Positions 19,549-43,500 of a stretch of DNA of 64,000 nt are shown here, in pieces. A model generated the notes under the pieces. The model saw nothing but the letters and a program-made list of their open reading frames with translations, was not told the origin of the DNA and did no database searches. A program made the translations under genes and the position numbers. This stretch comes from a virus, in the IMG/VR virus record IMGVR_UViG_3300002925_000017. One strand, given 5' to 3'. How positions within the stretch are numbered: position 1 is the first letter of the stretch; each line of letters begins with the position of its first letter.

Positions 19549-19558
19549 TTAACCAAAG

Positions 19559-19586
19559 AGGTAGTAGTGAAAACTACTACCTTTTT
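19559..19586 (+). terminator. intrinsic terminator with GAAA tetraloop
   Basis: AGGTAGTAGT-GAAA-ACTACTACCT followed by TTTT. Confidence 0.88.
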
Positions 19587-19600
19587 AAACTTTAAATAAT

Positions 19601-19798
19601 ATGAAAGAACTTAAAAGTATCATTGGTCTTGGAATTTTATTTTTTACTTTTTATTTAGCTTTTGAAGAAAATAATGAAAAAAATTCTGCTATTAAAACAT
19701 ATCTTTATTGGGATAGTTTAGGATATAGCGGCGCGGATACTGCTGTTTATCGCTCTTTAGAAGAAGATAAAAAATTTCAAAATAAACAATTTAAATAA
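19601..19798 (+). CDS. small protein with N-terminal hydrophobic segment, 65 aa
   Basis: ORF. Confidence 0.5.
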   Translation: MKELKSIIGLGILFFTFYLAFEENNEKNSAIKTYLYWDSLGYSGADTAVYRSLEEDKKFQNKQFK

Positions 19799-19800
19799 AT

Positions 19801-20004
19801 ATGATATACTACGAATTTAATTTTAAAAGATTTTATTTTCCATTTCAAAAAACAGAAAATGGTTGGGTTTTTGGTTTTATAAGAAAAGTTATAGAAGAAG
19901 ATTTTAAAACACAAAAATATGATAGATTTATTGATGATATATTAAAAGACATTCAAGATGTACAAACTTTTCCGAATGAAGATATTGAAAAAGAAATTAC
20001 ATAA
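19801..20004 (+). CDS. hypothetical protein, 67 aa
   Basis: ORF. Confidence 0.5.
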   Translation: MIYYEFNFKRFYFPFQKTENGWVFGFIRKVIEEDFKTQKYDRFIDDILKDIQDVQTFPNEDIEKEIT

Positions 20005-20010
20005 TAGGTT

Positions 20011-20035
20011 AGACTCAATTTATAAAATTGAGTCT
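20011..20035. repeat. perfect 11-bp inverted repeat
   Basis: AGACTCAATTT-ATA-AAATTGAGTCT, no T tail. Confidence 0.75.
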
Positions 20036-20059
20036 TACATTTATAAAAAATTATATTTG
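20028..20059 (+). promoter_or_regulatory. Bacteroidota primary-sigma-type promoter (TTG -33 / TAnnTTTG -7)
   Basis: TTG at 20028-20030, 21-nt spacer, TATATTTG at 20052-20059, in the noncoding region before the HNH gene. Confidence 0.55.
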
Positions 20060-20166
20060 GTTGAAAACGCGTAAAACTTAGCTGATAAAAAATTAAAAGT
20101 GAATTTTCTTATAAGAATAAAAAATAATTTTTTAAAAGCTAATGAGTATTTAGAATAAAATATAAC

Positions 20167-20640: not shown

Positions 20641-20893
20641 AGAAATATTATTTAAAAGACCAAGAGAGATAGTAATACAAGGTACTCAAAATAGAATTAT
20701 GGAATTATTAGGAACACAAGATAAAAACTTTATTTTTACATTTTTTGGAGAAACTAAAACTAGTGAAATTAGTTTACTTGACCCACAAATAGATTTTGAT
20801 ATTATTTACTATTTATGTATATCAGTATTAGAAAATTTTAATAATACAGGTAAAGAAGTAAATAACGTTAAAGGATATAGAAGGTCTGATTAA
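20504..20893 (+). CDS. hypothetical protein; true start uncertain (20516 or 20564)
   Basis: ORF overlapping the 3' end of the HNH gene. Confidence 0.45.
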   Translation: MINSMSFNIFTHKELKLIRTMQELLENIRKLGEMMKSIILIISQDKEILFKRPREIVIQGTQNRIMELLGTQDKNFIFTFFGETKTSEISLLDPQIDFDIIYYLCISVLENFNNTGKEVNNVKGYRRSD

Positions 20894-25335: not shown

Positions 25336-25354
25336 ATTAATTTAATTTACCTTA

Positions 25355-25362
25355 CAAAAATA
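25355..25362 (-). promoter_or_regulatory. TAnnTTTG -7 box upstream of the 1481-aa gene
   Basis: Minus strand reads TATTTTTG about 20 nt before the ATG; -33 box is poor. Confidence 0.45.
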
Positions 25363-25437
25363 ACAAAATAATAAATATATTTACATAATTAAATTTAACA
25401 CTATAAAGGGATATTAAAATAAATAATATAATCTATT

Positions 25438-28400
25438 ATGATTTGCATTGAACTAATTAATAATGAACAATTAAAATTTCAAAACGAGGATGAAGCAAAT
25501 TTGTTTGTTTATTGCTTACCAAATTCTTTAAAAGAATATTTATTAAATACTAATACAATTCAAGATGATTTTGTTTCAAATTCTTTAATCAAATATCATT
25601 CTGAATATATTAATAATACATTTAAAAATATAAATATAAATGATGAAGATTTATCTCATTTACTTAAAAATACCAAAAATATCAATATTATAATAGATAA
25701 ATTAGTAAATTTAATTGGTGTAAAACAAGTTTACAATAAGGTTTCTAATTTAAAAACAAAAAATTTAGATTTGTATAATGAAACTCTTTTTGCTTTAAAC
25801 CACATCGATAATATCTATAAAGATATTAATGAATTAACTCAAACAAAATTTGAACAAGTTGATTCTAATAATTATGAAGATGTAATTAAAGCAAACACTG
25901 CTTCTGATGCTACTTTATCTATTACTACTTCTGTTAACAATAGAGAGTCATTAGTTAAAAAATCTACTTTAGAACAAAATAAAAAATATATTCCTATAAG
26001 TATAGAAAATAATTTAATAATTGATAATACTGTAATAGATAAAATTGTAGAAAGTTTAAATGATATAGATGAAGAAAAATTTTATGAACAAACAAATAAA
26101 GATGAAGAAAAAATTAAAGAAAATAGCTCTTCTGCTATAGGTAGAAAAGAAATTTCTTCTAAAGATACTATCAAATATGATACACTTATTAAACCAGAAG
26201 TACAAAAATTATTTGATTCTAATCCTAAATTAGCTAATGAAGTGTATAAAGCTTTAGGATTTCAAGGTAATATAAATTTAGAATCTAATTTAAAAAATAC
26301 AGGTAAAACAGAAGAAGAGCTTATTGAATATCTTAAAAATAAATATCCTGAAATTAAGTTAAATATTTCTAATAATCCTGTATGGGAACAAGGAGATAAT
26401 ATATTTAATCAAGAAGAGTTTAATAATCAAGTTCAATATAGATTAAAAGCTGTAGAGATATTATCTTCTGATAAAGCTAAACAAATATTTGAAAAAGGAG
26501 AAAAAAATAAATGGAACTTAGATAGAATATTAACTGAATTACAAATACCTAAAGAACAAAAACAGATAATACTAAACTTAGGCAAAACTAATAGAGAAGA
26601 AATTATTACAAATTTATTAACTAATTTTAGTTATACTATTGAAATTAACACTGCTAAACAAAAAATACTTGAGAAAGGTAAATATGTAAATAATATACAA
26701 TTTAATTTAGATGGCTTTACTTATATTAAAGAAGGGTTAATATATGGTAAATTTAAAACTGGAACAAACGATAAAGTAATATTTATAGATAAAGAAGAAT
26801 TTGAGGAAGCTAAAAGAAAAAAATTAGCACAAGAAGAAAAACCTACTCAATATTACTCTAATTTAACAGTTCCGGGTGGTATTAATTATAGAGAAAACGA
26901 AATAGTTACACCATCTATTAAACCAAGTTTTAAAGGTCATGCGAAATTTAGTACAGATAAAGGTATTGGTTGGTTTAGAAGTGATGAAAAAAGTAATATC
27001 GGACAAATAAATACTGATTTAGAACAACTTGAAGAAGATTATAGAAATGGTGCGTTAACTGAAAATGAATATAAAGACGAATTACAAAGATTAGCAGAGC
27101 AAGGTATCTATAGAAAAAACGATTCTATTAAAGATTCTAAAACTCGTAGAATATTAGAAATACAATCTGATTTATTTCAAAAAAACAGAGATGAAAATAT
27201 AGCATTAGCTTGGAATAGATATATTTTAAATGATAAAGAAGAGATTATAGGAGAAAATCCTAATTTTCAAAATGAAAAAGATTTTTTAAATGTATTTAGA
27301 AAAGACAATAACTGGGTAAAATTTTTTATTAAATCTATTATACAAGACAGTGCTAAAAAAGGATATGAAAAAGTATGGTTTCCTAATGGGGATACAGCCA
27401 GTAAAGTTGAAGGACATACTACTTTAGAAGAATTTAAAAAACAAAAAGAAGAGGCAATATTAAGAAATGAGAAAAGATTAAATTCTTATTCTATTCAACC
27501 TTTTAATAATAAAGGTTTTAAAATTTTTGTCGGTGATGCTCCTCAATTTGATATTTTTAAAACAAAAGAAGAAGCAGAACAAAAAGTAAAAGAAATGTCT
27601 GCAAATGACATTAGAGAAATAGCACAACTTAAACAAGAAATTGAAAGAATAGAAAAAGAAGGATTTGGTTCTTTAAGACCTGTTTGGAATTTTTATGAAA
27701 ATACTATAAGTAATATCCTTAATAAAATTTATGGTAAAGAAAATGTAAAACAAATTACAGACGAATACGGTAATACTTGGAATGAAATAACTATTAATCA
27801 AGCAAGAGATTTATCTAATATATTACTTCAAAGAGATGAAGCCAATAGAATTATAGGTCAAGCTAATATTAGAGCTATGAGTGTTCTTGTAGATGCTATA
27901 AATAAAAAAGCAGATACAATACCACACGAATATGCCCATCATTATATTGCTTGGTTTAGAGATACTCCAATAGTACAAGAAGCAATAAAAAGATTTGGTA
28001 GTGAAGAAGCTTTAGTACAAGCTATAGGCGAACAAGTAGTTAAACAAAAAGGAGAAGCTTATAATTGGTGGAAAAAGTTTACTAATTGGATATTAAGTTT
28101 ATTATCAGATAAACAACTTTTACAAATACTTACAGATAGTTTTTTAAACAGATATAATCTAAATGACTTTACTTATAATGAAGTTAATGAGAAACAAAAA
28201 CAACTAGCCATACAACTATATTCTGAATACTTAGAATCATTGAACAAACCTAATGTCAATCCTAATATTAAAACTAATGTTAATACTAAACAAGAACCAG
28301 AAGATAAATCACGAGATAAAAATTACAAACAATTTGAAAAACTATTTTCAGATGAAGAAAATAAATTTTTTGTAGCAGAACAAAATATAAGAGATTTAGC

Positions 28401-29118
28401 AGAAAGAGTTTCTGCAAGAATAGGTATTTCTTATAAATTTGAAAATGATAAAACTAAAAAATATAAAAGATATTATAAAAATGGTGAAGCTGTAATTAAC
28501 TTAGCTTATGCTACATTAAATACACCTATATACGAAATATTAGGATATCCTATTATTAAAGTCTTAAAAAACAAAAATTCTAAATTATACAAAAATCTGT
28601 TAGAAGAAATTAAAATAGGTAGAGGTAAAGAAGTATTAGATAAAATTAAAAAGAATTATACTGAACTTAGTTTAGAAGAACAACAAGAAGAAGCAATAGT
28701 AATATTATTAGGAGAATTAACAACAAATAAGTTGAATGAAGTAAAAGATAAAAATCTTATATTTATATTAAAACAGTTATTAAAAGAAACGAATGACTTC
28801 GTCAGAAGTTTATTTAGCTCTGAAGAAATAAATTTAGACTTTAATGAATCTGATATAACTTATACAGATGAAAATGGCAAACTTTGTGCTGAAAATGGAT
28901 TACAATTATCTAAGTTTCAAAAAGGAGGTACTTGGGAAATCATTAAAGAATTTAAAGGTAAATCCCATGAACAAGGGGGTATTGATATTGAAATAAGTAA
29001 TGGGGTTATTAAAATGTCAAATAAACAGAATAAATTTAAAGCTAAGTTTGGTTTATTAATTCCTATAACGAAATATTATGCACAAGACGGGATTATTGTA
29101 TCAGAACTTTATAAATAA
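25438..29118 (+). CDS. N-terminal 1226-aa fragment of the interrupted gene (could still be expressed as a truncated protein)
   Basis: Long ORF; RRILEIQSDLFQK, HEYAHHY, KFQKGG, HEQGGID motifs. Confidence 0.7.
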   Translation: MICIELINNEQLKFQNEDEANLFVYCLPNSLKEYLLNTNTIQDDFVSNSLIKYHSEYINNTFKNININDEDLSHLLKNTKNINIIIDKLVNLIGVKQVYNKVSNLKTKNLDLYNETLFALNHIDNIYKDINELTQTKFEQVDSNNYEDVIKANTASDATLSITTSVNNRESLVKKSTLEQNKKYIPISIENNLIIDNTVIDKIVESLNDIDEEKFYEQTNKDEEKIKENSSSAIGRKEISSKDTIKYDTLIKPEVQKLFDSNPKLANEVYKALGFQGNINLESNLKNTGKTEEELIEYLKNKYPEIKLNISNNPVWEQGDNIFNQEEFNNQVQYRLKAVEILSSDKAKQIFEKGEKNKWNLDRILTELQIPKEQKQIILNLGKTNREEIITNLLTNFSYTIEINTAKQKILEKGKYVNNIQFNLDGFTYIKEGLIYGKFKTGTNDKVIFIDKEEFEEAKRKKLAQEEKPTQYYSNLTVPGGINYRENEIVTPSIKPSFKGHAKFSTDKGIGWFRSDEKSNIGQINTDLEQLEEDYRNGALTENEYKDELQRLAEQGIYRKNDSIKDSKTRRILEIQSDLFQKNRDENIALAWNRYILNDKEEIIGENPNFQNEKDFLNVFRKDNNWVKFFIKSIIQDSAKKGYEKVWFPNGDTASKVEGHTTLEEFKKQKEEAILRNEKRLNSYSIQPFNNKGFKIFVGDAPQFDIFKTKEEAEQKVKEMSANDIREIAQLKQEIERIEKEGFGSLRPVWNFYENTISNILNKIYGKENVKQITDEYGNTWNEITINQARDLSNILLQRDEANRIIGQANIRAMSVLVDAINKKADTIPHEYAHHYIAWFRDTPIVQEAIKRFGSEEALVQAIGEQVVKQKGEAYNWWKKFTNWILSLLSDKQLLQILTDSFLNRYNLNDFTYNEVNEKQKQLAIQLYSEYLESLNKPNVNPNIKTNVNTKQEPEDKSRDKNYKQFEKLFSDEENKFFVAEQNIRDLAERVSARIGISYKFENDKTKKYKRYYKNGEAVINLAYATLNTPIYEILGYPIIKVLKNKNSKLYKNLLEEIKIGRGKEVLDKIKKNYTELSLEEQQEEAIVILLGELTTNKLNEVKDKNLIFILKQLLKETNDFVRSLFSSEEINLDFNESDITYTDENGKLCAENGLQLSKFQKGGTWEIIKEFKGKSHEQGGIDIEISNGVIKMSNKQNKFKAKFGLLIPITKYYAQDGIIVSELYK

Positions 29119-29565
29119 AAAACAGGTAAAGATTGGAATACAGCTAAAGAAGAAGTTTTAAATACTAGTAGTTTTGAAGATAATATGAAGTTAAGAGATA
29201 GATTATTAAAAGGAGAATTTGATAATAAAACACTAAGTAATTCTAATTCTACAATTGAAACTAATAATCAAAACTATATAAAAGCTAATACTTTTAATGA
29301 AGCCTTTGCTGTTGCAAGAAAACAATTAGGTCCAAATCAAATATTTGAATATAACGGTAAAAAATACACTACTAATTTAGTAGGTGAAAAATTTGAACCA
29401 AGTGAAGAAGTATTGACTAAAAATAACATGAATAACCCAGAAGTAAAAAAAAGTTTAAAAAATTAAAATAAATTAACAGAATCAGTTTATTCAACTGATG
29501 AAAAAACTACAAAATTAGAACCTGAATATCAAGATTGGGATAAAATTAAACAAAGAAAACAAGAA

Positions 29566-30582
29566 ATGAATAAAATGAAACAAATTGATATTATAAAACA
29601 ATATCATAAAGATTCAGAAGAACAATATTTAATGCTTGATAAAAAAATAGGTAAAATGTACCTCATGAAAAGCAATAAAGAAATTGCTTCTTATAATGTA
29701 GGAGTTGGTGAAAATATAGGAGATGAACAAACAAGAACTTGGGTGGACAAAAAAACTAAAAAAGTAGATTGGACAAAAGGTAATAAACAAACTGGTGCTG
29801 GTATTTATACAGTGAGCGCAAGACAAGCTAAAAATAGCCATTACTCAAATGCTCCTTCATGGAATTTCACTAATGAATATGGTATTGAAGTTCCAATGGC
29901 TATTCACGCAGCAACTCCTGGAAGAGTAGGTAGAATAAATGATAAAGATGAAACTAACAATAGAGTTTCTAATGGTTGTATAAATGGTATTTGTCGTGAC
30001 CTTAAAGATTTATATAAAAGAAAATATAAAGCAGGTCAAAGATTATATGTATTACCTGATGATGATAATAATAGATATGAATTAAAAAATGTTATATTAG
30101 TTTTTTCTTCTAAAAATCCCAATGTAAACAGAACAGTAAATACTTTAAATTATAAACCTATTAAATTAGAATTAGATGAAGAAACCTTTAAAAATAAAGT
30201 ATTTACACCGATGGATTTTGATGATGAAGAAGAGCTTAAAACTACAAAATCTTTTATAAACGCTTTGCAAAATAATAAACAAAAAATAATGAAAGCTGCA
30301 AAAATAGATGGTGATACATATAACGATATTGCTAAAATAACATTTGGTATTTATGGTACTGAAAGTAATTTTGGAGATACTCATTCAGCAGTAGGAAACT
30401 TAATGAGAACTGTTAATAAATATTTTAATCCTGAATCTTCATCTTTTCCAGATATTCAAAGTAAAGCAACTACTTATGGAGCAGATAGTAATAATAATTT
30501 TGTAGGTTATACACAAATTAGATGGTCACAATTAAAAGAAAGAGAATTAAAAGAGGTATTACATCAAATAAAGATTTTTTAA
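29566..30582 (+). CDS. fragment with YkuD/L,D-transpeptidase-like domain and lysozyme-like domain
   Basis: IHAATPGR...RVSNGCIN (H-x-(S)xGC-hN); GIYGTESNFG...GYTQIR transglycosylase-like motif. Confidence 0.6.
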   Translation: MNKMKQIDIIKQYHKDSEEQYLMLDKKIGKMYLMKSNKEIASYNVGVGENIGDEQTRTWVDKKTKKVDWTKGNKQTGAGIYTVSARQAKNSHYSNAPSWNFTNEYGIEVPMAIHAATPGRVGRINDKDETNNRVSNGCINGICRDLKDLYKRKYKAGQRLYVLPDDDNNRYELKNVILVFSSKNPNVNRTVNTLNYKPIKLELDEETFKNKVFTPMDFDDEEELKTTKSFINALQNNKQKIMKAAKIDGDTYNDIAKITFGIYGTESNFGDTHSAVGNLMRTVNKYFNPESSSFPDIQSKATTYGADSNNNFVGYTQIRWSQLKERELKEVLHQIKIF

Positions 30583-30797
30583 ATCCTGAAAAATCTGCTA
30601 TCGCAACAGCAGCTATTTTAGCAATAAGATATCACGAACAATTAACTCCTGAACAAAAAAAGACATAGAAACTTATTTACCCTCAACGTGGAATAACAGG
30701 AGCAATTATTCTGATAGAGTTAAGTTAAATAGTCGATACTTAAAAATTAAAGAATTAGATTAATATAAACTGTAAACTTACATAAAAATAATTAACT

Positions 30798-31430
30798 ATG
30801 AAACAAGTTGAAGTAGAAGGTGGTGAATTAGCCATAAAAAATAGTTTTGGTGATATAGCTATTATTCCTAAAAAGTATAGAGCAGAGATTGAAAGAATGA
30901 TTAAAGATAAATGCTGGAGTTGTATTGACACTTTTGTTGATACCTTACCACTCGCATCTGATTATGCTCAAGGTGGAAGTGTATATTCGCCTAATACTAA
31001 AGTACAAGTTTATACGGGAGACCCGAAGTATGATGTTAAATCTTTAGCTCCAAGAGTAGGAGCAAGAAAAAACGACGATGGTACAGAATCAACGCATTTA
31101 ATGACTTATACCAGTGTTGGTAATAAATATTATGCTTATCCTACTTTATTTCAAAATAAAGACGGTAATTGGTTAGAATTATCAGATAAAAATAATTGGG
31201 AAGCATTTGAGGAAGCTAAAAAAAGAAAAGAGATTTTTGAATTTGATGATGAAAAATCAGCTAAAGATTTTGCAGAAGGGTCTTGGAAGAAGAACTATAA
31301 AGAATATTATACAAGTTCCCCTGAATATAGAAAATTATATAATTCAGGTAAATTAACATTTTATGATAAAGACACAGATACCTATATTGCTACACCATTA
31401 AAAGAAATAATTGTAACAACAACACAATAG
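30798..31430 (+). CDS. virion-cargo-like protein, 210 aa, possibly truncated
   Basis: EVEGGE and DYAQGG motifs shared with other cargo-like proteins in this window. Confidence 0.6.
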   Translation: MKQVEVEGGELAIKNSFGDIAIIPKKYRAEIERMIKDKCWSCIDTFVDTLPLASDYAQGGSVYSPNTKVQVYTGDPKYDVKSLAPRVGARKNDDGTESTHLMTYTSVGNKYYAYPTLFQNKDGNWLELSDKNNWEAFEEAKKRKEIFEFDDEKSAKDFAEGSWKKNYKEYYTSSPEYRKLYNSGKLTFYDKDTDTYIATPLKEIIVTTTQ

Positions 31431-31533
31431 TCAAAAGATAAAAATTAAATTATTTGAACATTTTAATAAAATGACTTTAGGATTAGTTCCTTCTTACTTA
31501 TATGTTAAACGACAAAATAAAAACAAATAAACA

Positions 31534-34500
31534 ATGAGCTGTAAACCTACATATAAAGGAAAAAGATATAATTCTATCGAAGAATTAAAGTCTAAAAATG
31601 GAGTAATATCAGTAGATATGACTCTAAATGATTTAGCTAATATTCTATCTTATAGAAATTCTAACATTATTCTTCCAGGTTTTAAAAAATTAGTTGTTAC
31701 TAATAACGGTAATGAAACACAATTTAATAAATTAAGTGAAGAACAAATAAATGATGGAATAAATCAACCTGAACAAGAACAAGTAAAGAAATTTGCTGAA
31801 CTCCAAGAAATCTTATCTAATAAAGACTTTTTAGAAGGCGCTAAAAAAGTTTATGAATCTACACCTGATTTACAAAAATATGGTACTCAAGAAGAATACA
31901 ATGACTATGTAGCGAGAATTATTTTAGGAATTATTAAAAATCCTACAAGTGGTGATTATAATTATAATAGTAAAGTAAAAGATATTGTTTATCATGGTAC
32001 TATATACGAATTTGATAAATTTAACAGAGGTATAAATGGTATTCATTTTACAAAAGATAGAAAAATAGCAGAAACTAAGTTTGGTTTACCTAATCAACAA
32101 TTAATAAATGCAATACCAGAATTACAAGAAAAATATAAAGGTAAAAACTCAAGAGTAATAAGTGCTATTTTAAATGCTAATAAAATTGATAGACAAGAAG
32201 ATAAATTTGTATTTAAAGGAGATAGAGATTTTGAAATAGAAAGTAAAAGATTTAGAGAGTTAAATAAAGAATATGATGCTATTGAATATACAAATAAATT
32301 TGAGGGAGGTGAAAAAGATAGTATTTTAGTATTTGAACCAGAACAAATACACATATTAGGAGGTAAAGAAGATATAGAAGGATTTAAACAATGGAATATT
32401 GATAGACAAGTATTAGGTGTTCGGAAAGAATTACAGGATACTAAAGAAACTTTTTTAAAAGATACTTTAATTGAAGAATTATCATCTAAAATATCTTTAG
32501 GAAATTCTAATTCTATTAGTTTAACATTACAAAATTCAATAAAGCTTGAAATACCAATAGAAACAGAATTTGTTTTAAATTCTGAACAAGAAAAAGCATT
32601 TAAAGAAATTAGTGAATTTATAAAGAAACCTATTTCTAGTACTTATAAAATTCCTAGCAAAACAAGAAAAGGAGAATTTGATATAAATCCAGAGAATTGC
32701 TGGTTATTAAGTGGCGCCGGTGGAACAGGTAAAACTTTTCTTATAGGAAAGATTATAAAAGAATCTAATAAAAATTTTCATTTTGCTACACCTTCTCATA
32801 ATGCTAAAAGAGAACTTATGAACTCTTTAGTAGATTCTAATTTTTATATTAATGTTGATACTTTACAATCTATATTAGGTATTAGTACTACAAATGGTAA
32901 AGATTTCTTTTTAGAAAGTAGAGAAAGTGAAAGAGGTAGAAGAGTATTTCCTATTGATAATATACAATATCTTGTTATAGATGAGGCTTCTATGGTAGGT
33001 GGAGATTTATATGAAGCAATGTTAAAAAGATTTGAAGAAATAGGGAGGTCACCAAAAATTATCTTTTTAGGAGATTATGCACAAATTCCACCACCAAGTC
33101 AAAAAGATAAAACAAGAGATAGTGAAGTTATTGATTTGTTATATCATCAAAATAAAGATAGAGTTAGTTTACTAACAATTAACATGAGAGCTAAATATAA
33201 AGATTTAGCAGATAAAAATTTACAATTAAGAAGTTTTATAGATAGAATAAATGATATTTTAATATATAATAAAAAAAGTCAAAATACTATTAAAAATGTT
33301 TTAGAAGATTTTAATAAATATATTAAAACTAAAAAATTAACTAAAAATACTTCTTTATTTAATAAAGAAAATTATGAAGATTTTTGGAGTAAATATGTCG
33401 AGCAATATAAAGAAATGTTATCAAATAATTTGAGTTTGAAACATTTAGTAATGGTTTCTTATAATAACCAAAAAACTAAACCCGAGCTTGTACAAATTGT
33501 TAGAAGTAAATTATTTGGTGACAATCAAAAAAATAAAATAAACGTAAATGAATTATTAGTTATTAATAATAATGAATTAAATGTACCTAATTCAGTAAAT
33601 CTTTATAAAGATGAAAGAATATTAGTTTTAAAAATAGAAGATTCTAAAAGTAATAAAATTTTTATTCCTATAAATAATAAAACGAGCAAAGGTATTATTC
33701 TAAATTTAAAACATAAAATATTAACGGTAAAAGCAGAAGATGGTGAAATTTATAAAATTATATATCCTGAAAAACCTTTAAATGAAATAATAAAAGATGT
33801 CAATTCTAATAATTTTAAAGATTTTGATATAAATTCTTTACCAAAAACAAAAAATGATTCTATAAACAAAAATCAAATAATATTTGAATTATCAAAAAAT
33901 ATATTAGAATTTGATTATGGGTATGTAGTTACATCTCATAGAGTACAAGATTCTACTTACGATAATGTTTATGTTTTAGAAGATAACATTTTGAATTCTA
34001 ATGCCTCTGAAAAAGAAAAATTACAATTACTTTATACTGCATATTCAAGAGCGAAAAAACATTTAAATATTTTAAATAAAGACCAAATAATACTACCTGA
34101 CAACGGAGAATATGATAATACAGAAATTATAAATAGTTATCAAAAACGTTTAAAACCTTTTTCTATTCCTAATATTAAAAATGAAGATGTTAAAGAAATA
34201 AAAGTTCCGTCAGAATTCTATTCTGAAATAAAAGAAATATTATATCGTCATTTTTTAAAACAAATTAAAAAAGAAAACCAAAAAGAAGTACTAATAACTT
34301 TAAATATTTTTGGTGATAATATTTATGAATTAACAAATAAATACAGTCAAAAATTATTAGATGATTTTTTATATAATTTATTAAAATCTATTACAGAGTC
34401 TCCTAATTTTAAAAATAAGATTAGTTTAATAAAAACAAGCGGAGAAACAGGAATAGAAGAAGCAGCAAATAAAGCATCAAATAGTTTAAAAATACCAAAT

Positions 34501-37500
34501 GTTACATTAACTACTAAAGATTGGAAATTTACCGTAGATATTGACACTTTTAATAAAAATTATAAAGATAGAGTTTCTTCTTATAAAATAGATGGTTCAG
34601 ATGTGTATATATTTGATGAAAAATATTTTAAAGAAAGGTTTAATGCTGATATTAAACAAGAAGAAACAACAAATGAAAACAACGAATTTTTTATTAGTTC
34701 TAAAAATTTAAATAATAAAATTATTGTACTTCTAAAAGATAAAATAGTACCTGATGCAATAATAGAAAATGATGAATTTTTTAGAAGAAATAAATATGGA
34801 ATTACTGATGAATTTTATATAGATAAAGATAATTTATATATAAACATAGATAAATTTAGAACAAGTAAATCTATAAAGAATTTAATACCATTGTTTGTAT
34901 ATTCTATAAAAAAAGATAATTCTGAATTTTATCAAGAATTATTAAAACCAATCAAAAGTTTACCTTTTTATCCTAAAGAATTTGATACTATAATATCTAA
35001 ATATTCTAATGTTCAAATAGATATTGAAGCAGAACTTTTAATAGATACTTTGTTCAATAAATATGATTTTTATCCTAAAGAATTAATACAAAAATTTGAA
35101 AATGCAGTAAAAGAAAAATTATCAAAATGGTTAGGTAATGATAATTTTTTCGAAGCAAAAAATAGTAATTTTGGTATAGATGAAAATTTGAGAAGTAAAT
35201 ATTTTTCTGAATCTGAAACAGTTAAATCTTCTGAAATTCTTAATAAAATTGCTAATAGTGCAAGTAAACATAGAAATTTAGCAAGAAAATTATTAGAACA
35301 TATAAATCAAAATGATGTAAATATAATATTACTTGGTGAAAAAAATTATGACATTGATTTTGCCGGATTATATAGTCATGGCACTAATGAAATATTTATT
35401 AACGAAAATGGATTATTTGGAGATATTGAATCTGAAGGAGTTATTATACATGAAATTATACATGCTTTAACTTTACATAAATTAAAAAATAATAAAAATG
35501 AATATTCTAAAGAATTTACAAGGATTTTTAATGAAATAAAAAACAGTGATTTAGAAGAAGTAAAAAAGTTAATAAAAGATTTTGAATATGAGACTTCTAA
35601 TGTTTTTGAATTTATAACTAATTTATTTACAAATAATGAGTTTCAAAATAGATTAAAACAATTACCAGACCTTAAAAATAAAGATAAGAGTATTTTTCAA
35701 AATATTATAGATTTTATAAATAGACTATTTGGATTTAAAGAGAATAATGAATTGTTTGATAACTTAAATAAATTGTCTTATAAAATACTTGATACAAAAG
35801 ACCCAAGAATTTTCGAAACAGGTGATAAATTAATAGATTTAAATGATATAGATGAAAAATCTGTTTATTATGTATTAAATAAAATAAGTACTTTAAATCA
35901 TCCTTTAAGTAAGTTAGCTGAAAAATTATTACCTTATTCTGAAAATTTAGGTGTCAATTTTTATTTAGTAGATGTTGTTGGAACTAAAAAGAAAAGAATT
36001 TTAGAAAAAAATCAAGAGATAAATTATAATTTAGGTTTTTATACATACGATAGTAATTTTAGAGATGAAATATATATTAATAAAAATAATATATATAAAA
36101 ATAAAGATTCTATACCTACATTAATGCATGAAGCAATTCACTCTTTAACTTATCATAATTTAAGAAAAAATTCTGAATATGTAGAAGAATTAAAGAGAAT
36201 TTATAATTATGTTAAAGCTAATACTAATGAAAACTTTTATGCTTTAAAAGATTTAGATGAATTCATGGTAGGTATTTTTACAGATAGTCGATTTATAAAT
36301 TATTTAAAAACTATTAAGCCTATAGAAATTAAAAAATATAATAATGTTTTTGAAGAATTAATAGATTTCTTTTTATCTATTTTTAAAATTGAAAAAGGAG
36401 AATCTATTTATGAACAAGCTTTTATCGTTGCATCAAATATTTTTGAAAATGAAGAAATTCCAATACCAAATGAAGAATTTTTTACTCAAGATTCAGATGA
36501 AAGAGATATTTACTATCAAATAAATATATTACAAGAAGAATTTTTTAATTTTTATAAAACTTTAAGTGAACAAAATACAGAAGATTATTTAATTAAATAT
36601 ATATATCCTTCAAATATTGATACAATATTAGAAGAATTAAATGCTGATGATAAAGTAAAACAAGAGTTAAAAGACTATTTTTTATCTAATAGAGAATTAA
36701 TTTATTCTGCACCTAATATTTATGAATTAGTTAATTCTTATATATCTAATAAAGAAGCATTTGAATATTCCTCTATAAGTAAAAAAGCAGATAAAGAGTT
36801 AGATTCTTTACTTTTAGATTATTTAAAACCATTAAATATAGAAGTTAGAGATTTAAACGAAATTAAATCGAAACTTAAAATAAATTCTTTAGGTGTTGCA
36901 GATATAATAAATAAATTAATTTATGTTGCGCAAGATAGAAATATTGATACATTACCTGAAGAAGTAGCACATTTTTACGTTGAGTTATTAGAAAAAAGAA
37001 ATAAAAAAGGAGAAGAGCGTAAATATTTATTATATAGAGATTTAATGTCAAAAATTAGTTCTTGGGAAAAATATGATACATATTATAAACAATATAGCAA
37101 AATATATTTAAATCCTGACGGAACTGTTGACGAAAATAAAGTTAAAAAAGAAATAGTAGGAAAAGCAATAGCTGAGGCTTTAGTAAGAAAATTTGAAACA
37201 AAAAATAAACAACTTAAATCTTTAGTTCAAAAATTAATAGATTATTTAAAATCAATATTTAAAAATAGACCTGTTTTTCCTATAAATCTATTAGTAGATG
37301 ACATTGCTGAAAAAATATTAAATAAAGATTATTCAGATATAAACAAAGATTTACTTAAAGGCGAGTTTTTAAAAGATTATTTTGATATATCAAATGATAT
37401 AAAAAGCCTTATAAAGAATTTTTCTTCTTTAGGTGCAATATTAACTGGGTCTTTACCATTGAGACTTTATGGTTCAATATATAGAACTAAAGAAGAAGAA

Positions 37501-40500
37501 TTTCATGATTTTGATTTTAAAATACCAAAAGATATTAATAAACAAGAAATAATAGAAAAAGTTAAACAATTATATCCTTCGTATGAATTGAAAACAGAGT
37601 TTGATTCTTCTAATAATTATAGTTTATTATTCACAATCGAACATAATGGTAAAAAATATGATATTGACTTTTTCTTCCAAAAAGATGATTTTAATATAGA
37701 ACCTAAATTTAAATATATGCATTGGTACGATACCTTTAAAGCTAAATTAGAAATGGGCAGAGCTAAAGACGTAAAAGATTTTATTAATTTTAAACCATAT
37801 GAAAGAATTTACGAAGATACTCCAACTTTACAAAAACCATCTGATTTTTATTATCAAATAGAACCAGATAAAAGAGCTAACATTTTAATACAAAATAATT
37901 TACCTACAGAAGGTTTAGTTTTACCTATAGGTATATCTGGTTCAGGAAAATCTACTTGGATAAATACTATTCCAAATAAAATAGTTGTATCTCCTGATGA
38001 AATAAGAAAAGAATTGACAGGAAATATATCTGACCAGTCTAGAAATAAAGAAGTATTTGAAATAGCAAAACAAAGAGCGGCTAATTATTTAAAACAAGGT
38101 AATCTGGTTGTATTTGATGCTACTAACGTAAACACTGTTTTAAGGAATAACTTAATTAAAGATATAGAAAGTTTATTAGGATATCAAGTTCCTCTTTTTT
38201 ATAAAATATTTGAATCAGACCCTGAAATATCTAAACAAAGAATTAAAAATGATATAATTTCTGGAAAAAATAGAGCGAACGTTCCAGACCATATAATTGA
38301 GATTCAATATCAACAATATTTAGATACATTAAATAATTTAAGTATCCCTCGTTTTCAACTTTTTAAAGAAGAAGAAAATAATACAGAAACATATAAAAAC
38401 GAAGCTCTTGAAAAAACAATAAGAGATATTGCCGCAAGAGCTTCTATTAGAATAGGAATACCTTTTGAAATAATAAATAATAAGAATTTTAAAACTAAAG
38501 GATATTTTAGTAATGGTAAAGCTACAATAAATATAGCTTATGCCACTTTAGATACTCCGATACATGAAATATTAGGTCATCCTATAATTTATTATTTAAG
38601 AAAAACTAATAGTAAACTTTATAATAATTTACTTAAAGAATTAGAATATGGTAAAGGAAAAGAAGTTTTAGAAAGTACTAGAAAATATTATTCAAATCAA
38701 CAATTAATTGACGAAGATGCAATTAAAGAGGAAGCTATCGTAGAATTATTAGGATTATATACTGCAAATAAAATAAAAGAATCAGAAAATAAAAGTTTAT
38801 TCTCTTATCTAAGAGAATTATTAAAAACTGTAAAATCTATCGTAAGAGAATTGTTAAATAAAAAAGAGATAAAAATTGATGAACTACCAGATAATTTAAC
38901 TATATCTGATTTATCAAAAATATTAGCTTATGGAAATAATACATTTATACTACCACAATTTGATGTAAAATATAGAACACCTGATAATAATTATTTTTTA
39001 ACTTATGCTGAAGCAAGTAAGCATATATCAGATTTATTTAATAAATCATTAAAAGAAGAAGATTTTAATCTTACATTAGAAGATTTATATAATTTTTCAG
39101 AGAAAGATAAAGAAAAACTTTTTGAATTAAGAAGAGAACAAGAATTAACAGTAAACGAAAAAAGAGAATTAAAAAGATTAGAAATATTATATCGTTTTTA
39201 TCCGTTTAAAAAAGAAATAGAAAATTTTATAGATTATAACCAGAAATACGAAATTAGTAATTTCTTTATACAAAAATGGAAAGAAATTGAAGGAATAATA
39301 TATAATCCAAACGAAGTTTATAAAAATAATATGAATTTTTATCATAAGATTGGGGCATATAGTTATTTTGACCCTTCTTTATTATTACAAAATTTATTAG
39401 TTCATATAGAAGACCATGAAAGAGAGGGCTTTGATTTTATAGTTAGTGCTTTTACTAGACGAAAGAACGAAAGAGCACAATTTGAATCTATACAAAATAA
39501 TGATATTAGGATTGTTATTTATCCTAAAAAAGAAGATATAGTGGCAGCATATAGAAAAGATATATGGTCAGGGACTGCATATTTAAGTAAGGCGGTATCT
39601 GAATATTTTACAAATAAAAGAATGGAACTTGTAGGAATAACTGCTACTAAAGCCGCAACATATCAATTTAATTCGTTTCCTGAATATAATTTATATGATA
39701 CTTTAAATTATGACGTCGAATATGATATTGATTTTGAATATGATAAATTGTATAATTATAATGAAATATTAATAAAATTAAAAGGTAACAATTTTAGACT
39801 TGAATATGATAGAGATGTAATTCCTACATTAAAAAATCTTATAGATAAAATAAACGCTATATTAGATAGTAAATATGGAAAAATAGAAATACCAAAAGTA
39901 AAAGCAACATACGTCGTAGAAGAACAAACAAGACCTAATAGATATTTTGAAATCGCTGGTCCTTTAAAAGATTATAATAATTTAGAAATTGATGGATATT
40001 TAGACTTAAAAGAATATTATAAAAAGAAGAATATTAAAAATATATTTTTAAATAAAAAAGATAATAAATATTTAATAATAGCAAATAAATTTGACGGTTC
40101 TGAAGAAATTTTAGAAGAACACGAAATAGAAAAAATAGCAGAGTTTAGATATAAATTATATACAGGACAAGAAAAACCAGATTTTACAAAAAAAGCTAAT
40201 GAAAATTTTAGACTTTCACAATTAAAAGAATTAAATAGAAAGTATTTAAGAAGTTTAATATATACAGAAATAATAAACAAAGAATATCCTATAGATTTAT
40301 ATAATGAAACATTTTTTCAACGTATAAAACCAAATTCTTCTATTTTAGACAAAAGAATAGATTATCTTATAGAAGAATTTGGTGATGAAAATTTAAAAGA
40401 ACAAATAAATAAAACTAAATTTTACAATGTTTATAAAGAAGATGATAAAGAAATCTTAAATTTAATTAAATCAGGAAGAATAACACAAATTTGTCAAGTT

Positions 40501-40503
40501 TAA
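31534..40503 (+). CDS. large polyvalent protein, 2989 aa (ART-like, RecD/Dda-like SF1 helicase, SLOG-like, 4 zincin-like, nucleotidyltransferase, PNK/AAA_33)
   Basis: VYHGT...GIHFT; SGAGGTGKT/IDEASM/GDYAQI/YTAYSRAK; TSGETGIEEA; HEIIH, HEAIH, EEVAH, HEILGH; LTGSLPL...HDFDF...DIDF; GISGSGKST...SPDEIR...DATN. Confidence 0.85.
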   Translation: MSCKPTYKGKRYNSIEELKSKNGVISVDMTLNDLANILSYRNSNIILPGFKKLVVTNNGNETQFNKLSEEQINDGINQPEQEQVKKFAELQEILSNKDFLEGAKKVYESTPDLQKYGTQEEYNDYVARIILGIIKNPTSGDYNYNSKVKDIVYHGTIYEFDKFNRGINGIHFTKDRKIAETKFGLPNQQLINAIPELQEKYKGKNSRVISAILNANKIDRQEDKFVFKGDRDFEIESKRFRELNKEYDAIEYTNKFEGGEKDSILVFEPEQIHILGGKEDIEGFKQWNIDRQVLGVRKELQDTKETFLKDTLIEELSSKISLGNSNSISLTLQNSIKLEIPIETEFVLNSEQEKAFKEISEFIKKPISSTYKIPSKTRKGEFDINPENCWLLSGAGGTGKTFLIGKIIKESNKNFHFATPSHNAKRELMNSLVDSNFYINVDTLQSILGISTTNGKDFFLESRESERGRRVFPIDNIQYLVIDEASMVGGDLYEAMLKRFEEIGRSPKIIFLGDYAQIPPPSQKDKTRDSEVIDLLYHQNKDRVSLLTINMRAKYKDLADKNLQLRSFIDRINDILIYNKKSQNTIKNVLEDFNKYIKTKKLTKNTSLFNKENYEDFWSKYVEQYKEMLSNNLSLKHLVMVSYNNQKTKPELVQIVRSKLFGDNQKNKINVNELLVINNNELNVPNSVNLYKDERILVLKIEDSKSNKIFIPINNKTSKGIILNLKHKILTVKAEDGEIYKIIYPEKPLNEIIKDVNSNNFKDFDINSLPKTKNDSINKNQIIFELSKNILEFDYGYVVTSHRVQDSTYDNVYVLEDNILNSNASEKEKLQLLYTAYSRAKKHLNILNKDQIILPDNGEYDNTEIINSYQKRLKPFSIPNIKNEDVKEIKVPSEFYSEIKEILYRHFLKQIKKENQKEVLITLNIFGDNIYELTNKYSQKLLDDFLYNLLKSITESPNFKNKISLIKTSGETGIEEAANKASNSLKIPNVTLTTKDWKFTVDIDTFNKNYKDRVSSYKIDGSDVYIFDEKYFKERFNADIKQEETTNENNEFFISSKNLNNKIIVLLKDKIVPDAIIENDEFFRRNKYGITDEFYIDKDNLYINIDKFRTSKSIKNLIPLFVYSIKKDNSEFYQELLKPIKSLPFYPKEFDTIISKYSNVQIDIEAELLIDTLFNKYDFYPKELIQKFENAVKEKLSKWLGNDNFFEAKNSNFGIDENLRSKYFSESETVKSSEILNKIANSASKHRNLARKLLEHINQNDVNIILLGEKNYDIDFAGLYSHGTNEIFINENGLFGDIESEGVIIHEIIHALTLHKLKNNKNEYSKEFTRIFNEIKNSDLEEVKKLIKDFEYETSNVFEFITNLFTNNEFQNRLKQLPDLKNKDKSIFQNIIDFINRLFGFKENNELFDNLNKLSYKILDTKDPRIFETGDKLIDLNDIDEKSVYYVLNKISTLNHPLSKLAEKLLPYSENLGVNFYLVDVVGTKKKRILEKNQEINYNLGFYTYDSNFRDEIYINKNNIYKNKDSIPTLMHEAIHSLTYHNLRKNSEYVEELKRIYNYVKANTNENFYALKDLDEFMVGIFTDSRFINYLKTIKPIEIKKYNNVFEELIDFFLSIFKIEKGESIYEQAFIVASNIFENEEIPIPNEEFFTQDSDERDIYYQINILQEEFFNFYKTLSEQNTEDYLIKYIYPSNIDTILEELNADDKVKQELKDYFLSNRELIYSAPNIYELVNSYISNKEAFEYSSISKKADKELDSLLLDYLKPLNIEVRDLNEIKSKLKINSLGVADIINKLIYVAQDRNIDTLPEEVAHFYVELLEKRNKKGEERKYLLYRDLMSKISSWEKYDTYYKQYSKIYLNPDGTVDENKVKKEIVGKAIAEALVRKFETKNKQLKSLVQKLIDYLKSIFKNRPVFPINLLVDDIAEKILNKDYSDINKDLLKGEFLKDYFDISNDIKSLIKNFSSLGAILTGSLPLRLYGSIYRTKEEEFHDFDFKIPKDINKQEIIEKVKQLYPSYELKTEFDSSNNYSLLFTIEHNGKKYDIDFFFQKDDFNIEPKFKYMHWYDTFKAKLEMGRAKDVKDFINFKPYERIYEDTPTLQKPSDFYYQIEPDKRANILIQNNLPTEGLVLPIGISGSGKSTWINTIPNKIVVSPDEIRKELTGNISDQSRNKEVFEIAKQRAANYLKQGNLVVFDATNVNTVLRNNLIKDIESLLGYQVPLFYKIFESDPEISKQRIKNDIISGKNRANVPDHIIEIQYQQYLDTLNNLSIPRFQLFKEEENNTETYKNEALEKTIRDIAARASIRIGIPFEIINNKNFKTKGYFSNGKATINIAYATLDTPIHEILGHPIIYYLRKTNSKLYNNLLKELEYGKGKEVLESTRKYYSNQQLIDEDAIKEEAIVELLGLYTANKIKESENKSLFSYLRELLKTVKSIVRELLNKKEIKIDELPDNLTISDLSKILAYGNNTFILPQFDVKYRTPDNNYFLTYAEASKHISDLFNKSLKEEDFNLTLEDLYNFSEKDKEKLFELRREQELTVNEKRELKRLEILYRFYPFKKEIENFIDYNQKYEISNFFIQKWKEIEGIIYNPNEVYKNNMNFYHKIGAYSYFDPSLLLQNLLVHIEDHEREGFDFIVSAFTRRKNERAQFESIQNNDIRIVIYPKKEDIVAAYRKDIWSGTAYLSKAVSEYFTNKRMELVGITATKAATYQFNSFPEYNLYDTLNYDVEYDIDFEYDKLYNYNEILIKLKGNNFRLEYDRDVIPTLKNLIDKINAILDSKYGKIEIPKVKATYVVEEQTRPNRYFEIAGPLKDYNNLEIDGYLDLKEYYKKKNIKNIFLNKKDNKYLIIANKFDGSEEILEEHEIEKIAEFRYKLYTGQEKPDFTKKANENFRLSQLKELNRKYLRSLIYTEIINKEYPIDLYNETFFQRIKPNSSILDKRIDYLIEEFGDENLKEQINKTKFYNVYKEDDKEILNLIKSGRITQICQV

Positions 40504-43500
40504 CAATTTACTAATCTTAATGTTTTTTCTTGTTTTTCTGCCTTTTTTAATTGAGGTTTGTTATAGTTCATTATAACTTTATTAGGATTAATATATTTTA
40601 AATCTTTTTCAAATTCTTTAGCATCAGATATACTTAATATATTATTACTAATTAATAAGTGCACAAACTTTTCATTACTATCTATATATGAAAAATCCAT
40701 ATTCGGATTGTTTATAATTTTACTATGTAAAAAATTATTAAATTCTATTGATATTGCGTCATTCTTATCAAAAAATCTAGTAAATGCTCTTTCTCGTAAA
40801 GAGTCTCTATGTACTAACATATTATACAATCTTAAAACATTATATATTGAATTATTTTGTATATATTTATTTTTTAAAGACTTTAATGCTAAACTCAAAC
40901 TTGTATATTTTAATGATTTACTTGAATTAGATAAATCTGTATGATTTTCGTTCATTTTCCAAAAAGTATATTTTTTACCAAAAATATCATAATCAACGTC
41001 TTCTATTAAATTATTTATAAACTCGTTTAACATTAATTTAGGGTCTGCTTTTAATGCAGGAAAAAATACTTCTTCGGCATATCTTATAAATTCTTTTCTA
41101 TCTTCTTCATTAGCTAAATTAAATAAATTTCCTTTTTCATTAAACACTTTAATTTGATTTGAATATTTCTGTAAAAACTCATCTATAAATAAATTATCAA
41201 ATATGTTATTTAATTTATTAAAAGTTTTTTCATCAATTCTATTTATATCTATAAAATTATTTCTATGAAAGTGCATTAATAATTTTTTTATATTATTTAA
41301 TCTTAAAGCAGTATTTCTATATACTTTTTCAGCAGAAGCAAATATTTCATATTGAGCTCTTGTATGAGGGTTAATTGCTATAAGATACAAAGGATTAAAT
41401 GTATCTTTAACTTTATCAAATTCTTTAATATAATTTAACGAATAAGAATCGTATTTTTCTTTACCCTGTAACCAATCATCAAAACCTTTTAAGTTTTCTA
41501 TAAACCTAACTAAATCAAACTCTTCTGCCATTTTCTTTAATTTATCATTTTTTTCACTTTTACTTTTCATATATTCTATAAGCATTTGTTCAAACTGAAA
41601 GATTGCAAAATTATCTGATTTTAATCCTTGATTTATACTAAATAATTTACTTATTATTCTAAATTCTTTTGTTTTGTCGTATAGCAATTTGAAAGATTTT
41701 AAATTTTCATCTTTTGATTCTAAATTTTTATATACAGCGTCTAAATTAGAAACATCTTTCGAATAAAAGTTTATATCTTTTGTTTCGAGTAAAGATTTTA
41801 CATTTTTTTGATTTAATATATAAGCTATATCTTCTGTTGGTATTCCTAATATAGAACCCAAAGAATAAATAGGTGCTGTTGTCATAGTAGAATTTAATCC
41901 TCCTAATTTTAATTCTTTTGCATTATCAGTTGCTAAATTTAATAATTCACCAAGAATATCAAAAGCTTTATCTTGTAAATTTAACTCATTTCTTAATTCT
42001 TTTAAACTTTTTCCACTATATAGTTCTTTTACTATAAAATTTATAGTTTCCTCATTTAAGATATCTAAATTTAAATTAGCGGGCATACTATAAGTTTTAG
42101 TTGATGTATTATTATCTCTTTCTATTTTTATTGTTAATTTTGGTATTTTTAAAATAGACTTGAATAATTCTTTTTTATCTTTATCTTGATAACTTTTATA
42201 TAATTCTAAAGTTTTGTAATAAGATGCTGTTATACCTGATAATACTTTTAATCCTGTTGCAAAAATTCCTATTTCTTCTTTACCTAACATATTATCATAT
42301 TTCATACTAACTTTAGACATTAAAGAATAATTAGACATTAAAGAAATACTATTATTTGTATAATTATCAGATATTTGACTTAAATAATCAACATTAATTG
42401 CTTTTTCTCTAACTATAATATTTCTTGGGTCATTTACTAAATCTATAAAAGAATCTATTATTTGATTTTCTATATCGTCATTTGGTTTATTTAAATTATA
42501 ACCTATAATAGTAGTTTTATCTACATCGTAATCACCACCAGTTAAAATTTGATGGTCATTATTAAGCATAATAGTATTTTCTTCAGTATGAATAAATCCT
42601 ACTATTTCGTTAACCATTACAGAAGCTAAAGATTGTAAAGGTATTCTTTGAGTCACAAATTGATTTGATTTAGAAAATTGTTCTCTTTTCATTTCAGAAA
42701 AAGAATTTAATAGTTCTTCTTTTATTTGTTTTTTATTTTTTACTTCTTGATATTTTCCTTTAGCTAATTTTTTAACTAATTTTTGTTTTTGTTCTTTTGT
42801 AAATTTAAAAGATTCATCAGATAAATAAGAATTTATTAAATTTTCATCAGAAAGACCTATATAATTAAAGAAATCATAAGCAGCTTTAATATTAGTAAAT
42901 ACTTTATTCTTAAAATAATCTTCTGATTTTATTTGATTTATAGAACTATTATTATTTATATAAAACATTCTTTTCCACAAACTTGGAGCTAACATCTCTC
43001 CTTTTGTTGCTTGCCAATAGGTTTTATCTTTTTGAACTAATTGATTAATAAACCTTTGTAATCTATTTTCTAATTCTCTTGTTGTTTCTTTATCGGCTTG
43101 TCTTAATAATTCTGAAAAAATAGCTTGTTCTGATAAACCTTCAAATTCTGATTTTATATTTAGTTCTTTAGATATATTTTTTAAATCTAAAACGCTTACT
43201 TCTTCGATTGGAATAAAACCTCTATCAGTTTTTAACTTTAATTCTGCTTTTTTCAAATCTCTTGGTTTTACATCTAAAATTATTCCTTCTTTCTCTTTTT
43301 GTTTTTTATATAATCTATACTCATATCCTTGCATGATTTTTCCATCAACTTCATAAATTTGTGTCGGTGGTTTAATTACCAACATAGCACCTTTTAACTT
43401 CTTTTTTATACCTTCTTTAGTTAAATAACTATTAAAACTACTTAAAAGTATTTTAACTATTTGTCTATTATCAAAAGAAGGCGTTTTGGAATAATTTATT

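Follow-up and report, generated by a model that had tools for sequence, protein, structure and literature searches.

A probable ancient inversion and a mosaic import in the virion RNA polymerase block of an AT-rich crAss-like phage

The virus record IMGVR_UViG_3300002925_000017, of which a stretch of 64,000 nucleotides (nt) was analyzed (referred to here as the window), contains a block of plus-strand genes at 25438-40503 that is set between two minus-strand genes, F and A. We consider it probable that this block arose by local expansion of a single conserved "middle" gene of the virion RNA polymerase (RNAP)/cargo block of crAss-like phages, a gene that was inverted long ago. According to this interpretation, the variable gene located between gene A and the RNAP gene would have come to lie on the opposite strand in the ancestor of an AT-rich crAss-like clade, with breakpoints at gene boundaries. 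Since then, the flipped gene would have been read away from A, starting in the short conserved region that separates the two, and would have converged on the stop codon of the RNAP gene. The slot itself acts as a hypervariable polyvalent gene, with a head of the form M-x-C-I-x-L..LKF and a tail of the form ..G-R-[IV]-T-Q-I-C.. bracketing exchangeable modules (ADP-ribosyltransferase, SF1 helicase, zincin/SprT protease, and polynucleotide kinase). In the phage studied here, a mosaic of approximately 6.2 kb from distant crAss-like phages then recombined into this gene, and its internal stops and starts produced gene B, a broken YkuD gene, gene D, and gene E (Table 1).

The base composition of the window ranges from 21 to 30% GC, and changes of the coding strand are accompanied by a change of sign in GC skew and AT skew. 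The left arm, on the plus strand, is a replication module comprising an ATP-dependent ligase, a DNA polymerase, helicases, a DnaB-like helicase, rIIA/rIIB-like proteins, and endonuclease VII. An earlier note, made from the sequence alone, had described a plus-strand block between minus-strand A and F, and both the open reading frame (ORF) map and the skew sign changes agreed with this description. The matching N-terminal heads that it listed are present, E starting with MSCKPTYKGKRYNSIEEL and A with MACKYVDNLTGNTYNSKEEL (MSCK..YNSIEEL versus MACK..YNSKEEL). The K[FY]xxGG motif, which it had offered as a hallmark of these proteins, is real but thinly represented, occurring once in the block (KFQKGG at residue 1159 of B) and in two minus-strand proteins (KFQYGG and KYAKGG). 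Re-inverting 25438-40503 in silico placed F, B, C, D, E, and A in order on a single strand. The continuous minus-strand operon thus obtained, as the note had anticipated, has the gene order of the co-oriented contigs G001 and G003, which belong to a set of distant crAss-like phages from IMG/VR (G001 to G004). The note had also placed the block proteins in one class with those of the flanking virion RNAP block, and this was borne out.

The RNAP was located in the C-terminal part of F. Pfam assigned an SF1 helicase-like region to residues ~1403 to 1626 of this protein, and the RNAP domain spans residues ~3819 to 4483, with the motif GGDYDVDK at residue 3895. In an alignment of 25 sequences of this region, the three Asp residues of the motif were nearly invariant. 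An AlphaFold model of the C-terminal ~700 residues (mean predicted local distance difference test score, 78.5) yielded a single significant PDB match, 6VR4 (E value, 2.8e-4; probability, 1.00), and a profile of the C-terminal domain matched gp50 of PhicrAss001 with an E value of 1.5e-20. The motif, the fold match, and the profile match together indicate that the phage is crAss-like and that F carries the virion RNAP, in line with the RNAP operon proposed earlier. F unites a gp47-like protein and the virion RNAP in a single polypeptide, which the closest relative (see below) splits into proteins of 2890 and 1828 amino acids (aa). When F was compared with GenBank phages by tblastn, only two weak matches were obtained, and a word-based search with its C-terminus returned only the protein of the window itself.

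Homologs of A are proteins of 1449 to 1540 aa. In every match (L030, L048, L102/104, L096, L072, L058, and others), their gene shares the strand of RNAP, which it follows at a distance of one to three genes. The ratio of nonsynonymous to synonymous substitution rates (dN/dS) of A was 0.19. Judging from these matches, A is the conserved terminal protein of approximately 1450 to 1550 aa of the crAss-like virion RNAP block, and a core gene of it. Since the A homologs are co-oriented with RNAP in all surveyed loci and the genes in between are variable, what is unusual in the window is the variable middle segment, neither A nor F.

The age of the arrangement can be judged from the closest backbone relative, which was recovered as Logan contigs from three samples (SRR15359035, SRR28863568, and SRR28863567). 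Identity between the relative and the window was 67% in A (P0002) and 51% in the F C-terminus (P0004), and the synonymous divergence (dS) of the backbone was 1.0 to 1.2, which is saturated. On contig L028 of the relative, the replication module (rIIA, rIIB, IF3-like, uracil-DNA glycosylase, and endonuclease VII) occupies one strand and a 1486-aa A homolog the other. A conserved spacer of 56 nt follows, and then a 3625-aa polyvalent gene (P0142) that diverges from the A homolog and converges, with a 4-nt stop overlap, on the 1828-aa and 2890-aa genes. The product of P0142 carries PIF1/SF1 helicase, DUF7831, DUF6782, and LPD23 domains. Its first 47 aa are 55% identical to the head of B, its last 59 aa are 58% identical to the tail of E, and its helicase and SprT regions are collinear with E. 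Because both junctions are kept in the relative and dS is saturated, the junctions are older than the split of the two phages. The flip is therefore old and fixed, and no recent accident. The earlier note had assumed that an inversion had detached these genes from late transcription in the window, and comparison with relatives turned against this account with the very outcome that the note had named as refuting, as the relative possesses both junctions, in the same orientation, around an intact 3625-aa gene. Its suggestion that the block was silenced did not hold either: E (2989 codons) and B (1226 codons) have remained intact in DNA of 22% GC.

To place the arrangement among crAss-like phages, orientation was surveyed in 80 IMG/VR loci retrieved with an RNAP-domain alignment. 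Loci whose RNAP genes break into short ORFs under table 11 (many within L031-L110) were left out of the tally. In nearly all loci with readable ORFs, the genes between RNAP and the A homolog were variable and co-oriented. The contigs G001 to G004 carry modules resembling B, C/D, and the head of E, all on the same strand as the structural genes and a giant gene with the RNAP motif DFDxD. Their order (giant gene, B-like gene, YkuD/D-like gene, MSCK-headed protein) is the one obtained after re-inverting 25438-40503. By these comparisons, the block is inverted relative to most crAss-like phages. The premise that crAss-like phages normally keep these genes on one strand was thus correct for nearly all surveyed loci with readable ORFs but not for PhicrAss001, in which gp49 and gp50 lie opposite gp47. 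A one-strand layout together with the structural module was found neither for the window block nor for PhicrAss001, and because the latter also has block genes on both strands, such a layout is no strict criterion for the family. The shattered RNAP ORFs seen in many of the IMG/VR loci (L031-L110) would fit stop-codon recoding, which is known in some crAss-like lineages.

In a tree of the RNAP domain, the window fell into a clade with L028, L033, L027, L029, and L030 (support, 0.999). Within this clade, the window was paired with L028 (1.0), next to L033, L027, L029 (0.98), and L030. A convergent gene directly follows the RNAP gene in five of the six lineages, i.e., in three further ones besides the window and its closest relative, the exception being L030, which is co-oriented. 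The convergent gene of L033 encodes 1691 aa with the head MALCINL..LKF and with DUF6782 and AAA_33 domains, one region being 52% identical to residues 2111 to 2347 of E. In L027, its product has 309 aa, a related head, and a tail with Cys, and in L029, it encodes at least 357 aa before running off the end of the contig. Wherever the start falls on the contig, the heads of the inverted genes are related. The inverted state can accordingly be described, as far as these loci go, as a trait of the clade.

A single ancestral flip would be the most parsimonious reading of this distribution, although several observations weigh against it. The tree node that excludes the co-oriented L030 from the five inverted lineages is weak (support, 0.31), a value that would also be compatible with two separate inversion events or with an inversion and a later reversal. 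Just one species of close relatives is known; scans of IMG/VR with A and with the F C-terminus yielded no relatives, and a scan of JGI metagenomes with the A alignment yielded no match. In addition, the head of the inverted genes (C-I-x-L..LKF) differs from that of co-oriented middle genes (C-P-N..W). Given these differing head types, the inverted gene may be a replacement, with no literal flip. In the ancestor of the clade, another polyvalent gene, equipped with its own head and promoter, would then have been inserted in reverse and have taken the place of the co-oriented middle gene. The C-P-N..W heads of the middle genes of L030, G001, and G003, from which the M-x-C-I-x-L..LKF heads differ, agree with such an event, as does the uptake of foreign DNA demonstrated at this locus. 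We nevertheless regard replacement as unlikely. Re-inversion recovers the exact tail-to-head and gene order of the co-oriented relatives, the Cys signatures of head and tail are kept, and the fast evolution of heads makes a difference in head type weak evidence.

The earlier note had also envisaged an orientation switch between genome states. A recent inversion or a reversible switch would explain why the segment is cleanly inverted with breakpoints at gene boundaries, and possibly why one gene of the block is broken, but it is very improbable for several reasons. Both junctions are kept in a relative with a dS of >1, and the inverted state occurs in four other lineages. No exact inverted repeat linking the two junction zones is longer than 13 nt, which does not exceed chance (random zone pairs: mean, 10.75 nt; maximum, 13 nt). 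No recombinase was found among the window genes scanned with Pfam and PHROG, a scan that did not take in every small ORF, and the broken gene sits in imported DNA. Site-specific invertible segments, such as the Gin/G segment of Mu, the Cin/C segment of P1, and the invertons of Bacteroides, resemble the window locus in that a gene-bearing segment is reversed relative to its surroundings. They differ from it in having flanking inverted repeats and an invertase, neither of which was detected here; the locus is also set apart by its size of 15 kb and by an orientation that is fixed across lineages. Even less credible is an artifact of assembly, i.e., a chimeric or misjoined contig. Nothing specific speaks for it, other than that this exact phage is represented by a single assembly. 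The identical architecture is present in three independent assemblies of the relative, and the junctions of the window preserve the 4-nt stop overlap, the reading frames, and the conserved head and tail. A search of sequencing runs with words from the window listed four DNA runs with hot-spring metagenome labels, from which no habitat is concluded; each shared 6 to 9% of the words, and no RNA run was listed.

The expansion of the inverted gene can be traced to DNA shared with G001 to G004. According to blastn, nucleotide similarity to these phages is confined to 26188-32388 and absent from the rest of the 64-kb window, and their DNA polymerase is only ~26% identical to that of the window. The dS of the imported segment was 0.34 to 0.40, compared with 1.0 to 1.2 for the backbone. 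Low dS and the confinement of nucleotide similarity to this segment indicate that the gene which it entered had been inverted before, and the segment has the reading direction of that gene. It recombined in from distant crAss-like phages later than the backbone split and thereby divided the native gene into B, the broken YkuD gene, D, and E. The head of B is 53 to 55% identical to the head of the 3625-aa protein of the relative, whereas the remainder of B is unrelated to that protein; the body of B shares 55% aa identity and 73 to 82% nt identity with G003-1160. In E, the MSCK head and the ADP-ribosyltransferase (ART) region are imported and the body and tail are native, and the head is 90% identical to that of G001-1485. 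D is 73% identical to residues 1 to 64 of the 628-aa protein of G001 (G001-628) and to G002-369.

Residues 50 to 561 of the same 628-aa protein match the broken YkuD gene at 76.5% (tblastn), straight through its stops. The gene continues in frame from the end of B and is interrupted by the stop codon of B (TAA at 29116), a second in-frame TAA near 29464, and a frameshift near 30580. Its dN/dS of 0.31 to 0.38, taken over its history, suggests that the loss was recent. The earlier remark that part of the block is decaying was therefore correct with regard to this gene, but the decay is confined to imported DNA. Recoding of TAA was considered as a cause of the in-frame stops and rejected, because neighboring genes normally stop with TAA and because a frameshift is present as well. 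It should be noted that a duplicated domain occurs in B (residues 968 to 1153; 28378-28785) and E (residues 2275 to 2468; 38410-38826), with 46% aa identity and 70% nt identity between the two copies. This domain is also present in a 1786-aa protein of G001 and in L003.

Gene E encodes a string of enzymatic domains. An ART-PolyVal domain at residues 151 to 272 scored slightly below the Pfam cutoff (28.4 versus 31.2 bits). Pfam and PHROG further assigned an SF1/Dda-like helicase (residues 332 to 988), an SprT-like zincin (1277 to 1338), and an AAA_33/polynucleotide kinase (2128 to 2257). The protein ends in ..GRITQICQV. By these domains, E is a typical polyvalent protein, and P0142 of the relative carries LPD23. 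We take ART-PolyVal (PF18760) and LPD23 (PF18838) to be domains of the polyvalent-protein family. Polyvalent proteins of phages and conjugative elements, reportedly described by Iyer and colleagues, are giant proteins with unrelated enzymatic modules in a string; they presumably accompany the DNA into the host cell, and they undergo extensive module shuffling. E resembles them in its ART, SF1 helicase, zincin/SprT protease, and kinase modules and in module exchange. Unlike polyvalent proteins in general, the window gene occupies a fixed slot of the crAss-like RNAP block, where it is bounded by a conserved head and tail and runs against its neighbors. The slot protein is probably directed against the host. 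The position of the block, the terminal Cys residues of heads and tails, and the precedent of PhicrAss001 suggest that E-type products are packaged in the virion and delivered together with RNAP.

A regularity of terminal Cys residues was apparent in the giant proteins. In 134 distinct giant ORFs of crAss-like RNAP blocks (window, L025-L110, and L111-L114), Cys made up 0.16% of residues. Nevertheless, 89 of 104 complete heads had a Cys within the first 7 residues (1.0 expected). Within the last 6 residues, a Cys was found in 87 of the 111 tails not detected as A-type (1.1 expected) and in none of the 16 A-type tails. The head Cys is missing from the first protein of the block and the tail Cys from the last (A-type). 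The virion proteins of phi14:2 confirmed by mass spectrometry (MS) have Cys only at their ends: at the last residue of gp67, at residues 3 and 2179 (of 2180) of gp66, and at residue 3 of gp65. In PhicrAss001, Cys is located at residue 2339 of 2341 in gp47, at residues 5, 1334, and 2404 in gp50, and at residue 5 in gp49. In p-crAssphage, it is located at residue 1956 of 1957 in gp45 and at residue 3 in gp44, which has no tail Cys. In the window, Cys is the final residue of F and is found at residues 3 and 2987 of E; A has Cys3 in its head and no C-terminal Cys, and B has a Cys in its head only. The relative's counterpart of F (40500-54215), at L025 1335-15487, consists of a 2890-aa protein ending in Cys, followed by a 1828-aa protein with Cys7 and a terminal Cys. 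In the fused F, no Cys remains near the fusion junction, both junction residues being gone.

The flipped genes retain the Cys signature of the family, and re-inversion would restore the tail-to-head order at F/B and at E/A. We speculate, with considerable reservation, that the giant proteins of the RNAP block form a covalently or metal-coupled "train," in which the flipped gene provides the middle car (RNAP-C~C-E-C~C-A) and the order of ejection is set by the termini. If ejection order were encoded in the termini rather than in gene orientation, the slot would tolerate inversion and module swapping. A physical coupling of this kind would bear on the ordered exit of unfolded giant proteins from the capsid. 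The terminal-Cys pattern was mentioned neither in the phi14:2 preprint nor in the PhicrAss001 structure paper, and a literature text search did not retrieve it.

The flip itself has a precedent. In the Bacteroides phage PhicrAss001 (MH675552), gp48 to gp50 converge on gp47, and gp49 and gp50 are encoded on the strand opposite gp47. All three of gp47, gp49, and gp50 are virion proteins according to mass spectrometry (PMC10172136). The packaging of gp49 and gp50 shows that encoding on the "replication strand" does not keep a cargo protein out of the virion. PhicrAss001 resembles the window in that its structural genes and part of its virion RNAP block are on different strands, with this part running toward the first giant gene, in the homology of gp50 to the C-terminal domain of F, and in the terminal-Cys pattern. 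The two differ in what was flipped: in PhicrAss001, it is the RNAP and the terminal protein, whereas in the window, the flip is limited to the variable polyvalent gene that separates these two. RNAP and A of the window have stayed on the structural strand, and A is left as an isolated single-gene unit. Searches with phmmer and with an A-homolog profile did not reach gp49 of PhicrAss001 or the proteins of p-crAssphage. In the Cellulophaga phage phi14:2, a two-barrel DxDxD RNAP (gp66; PDB 6VR4) is flanked by giant virion proteins in the series gp67-gp66-gp65, as in the window, and the two phages have the same kind of MACK/MSCK heads and C-terminal Cys tails. One neighbor of the phi14:2 RNAP contains a zincin protease (10.1101/2020.03.07.982082). 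In contrast to the window, the three phi14:2 genes are co-oriented, and no multienzyme polyvalent protein lies between RNAP and the terminal protein. New in the present locus are the clade-specific flip of the middle gene only, the dated mosaic import that splits this gene, and the terminal-Cys regularity.

With A separated from the RNAP operon, a promoter of its own is needed for this gene. The region between A and B shares a conserved block, CC.TACAAAA.TA..AAAATAAT.AATATATTTACA, with the corresponding region of the relative (L024/L028), and it is presumed to be a candidate bidirectional promoter region. A scan for sigma-70 promoters gave no excess over shuffled sequences in this AT-rich DNA. 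The conserved intergenic motif and a ACTATAAAG-like word had no second copy elsewhere, and TAnnTTTG was too frequent to be informative about promoters. At both convergent junctions around the flipped region (20890-20893 and 40500-40503), the stops overlap, and no hairpin terminator is present. A GC-rich hairpin lies between the convergent genes of the more distant L033 (~12640-12674) and L029 (~11052-11108).

The strand of the block also raises the possibility of a functional retiming. The polyvalent enzymes would be made early or in the middle of infection as intracellular antidefense or DNA-processing factors, instead of or besides being packaged late. The block shares its strand with the replication genes and has an upstream region of its own. 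Its overlapping convergence with F without a terminator would fit a temporal separation of the two transcription units. A review (PMC10136315) distinguishes "middle (replication + optional transcription)" genes and assigns "most cargo proteins," not all, to the late class. On the other hand, the terminal-Cys signature of head and tail that marks the MS-confirmed virion proteins of phi14:2 and PhicrAss001 is retained in E and its homologs, and promoter scans of the window assigned no promoter class. We regard retiming as possible but doubtful.

These comparisons mark the slot between RNAP and the terminal cargo gene as a hot spot for the exchange of giant multienzyme proteins between very distant crAss-like phages. 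The orientation of this slot is evolutionarily free, which corrects the picture of two oppositely oriented modules and warns against using the strand as a proxy for expression class. The locus also provides a dated example of a gene of the 3000-aa class that was split into several by recombination, with one passenger gene decaying.

Table 1. Positions of the genes, junctions, and imported segment in the window
Feature	Position	Strand	Basis or description
Plus-strand genes	1-20893	+	ORF map
Gene A, 1481 aa	20890-25335	-	ORF map
Divergent intergenic region A/B	25336-25437		Conserved block common to L024/L028 of the relative
Gene B, 1226 aa	25438-29118	+	ORF map; native head MICIEL..LKF (Cys3), imported body from ~residue 251; no tail Cys
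Imported mosaic segment	26188-32388	+	blastn patches with 73-96% nt identity to G001-G004
Broken YkuD (L,D-transpeptidase-like) gene	29059-30760	+	tblastn, translation, Pfam YkuD; largest remnant, ORF C
ORF C, 338 aa	29566-30582	+	ORF map
Gene D, 210 aa	30798-31430	+	ORF map; truncated paralog with 64-aa YkuD-type head and diverged stretch
Gene E, 2989 aa	31534-40503	+	ORF map
Convergent junction E/F	40500-40503		Stops overlap in TTAA; no terminator in between
Gene F, 4571 aa	40500-54215	-	ORF map; minus-strand genes onward to 64000

Outside the block, PHROG and Pfam revealed no structural hits among the minus-strand proteins at 54 to 64 kb, and the capsid module is probably located past the end of the window. 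Neither PHROGs nor Pfam gave a match for A, B, D, or the proteins of 616, 342, 661, and 584 aa. A patatin-like phospholipase is encoded at 59584-60465 (Pfam, 1.4e-26; phrog_25573), amid the minus-strand genes of the presumed virion module. A direct repeat of 54 nt with 83% identity (57305-57358 and 57386-57439) is situated where 510 nt separate the 342-aa ORF from the 661-aa ORF. In the left arm, a 314-aa protein at 4324-5268 combines an endolysin-type domain (phrog_7; residues 27 to 155) with a match to the "phosphatase" phrog_335 (residues 137 to 313). Farther along, at 19549-20166, the window has a small 60-aa homolog and an ORF-poor gap where the relative (L028 2924-4360) has the IF3-like protein (IF3_N/IF3_C) and the uracil-DNA glycosylase, both located between rIIB and endonuclease VII.

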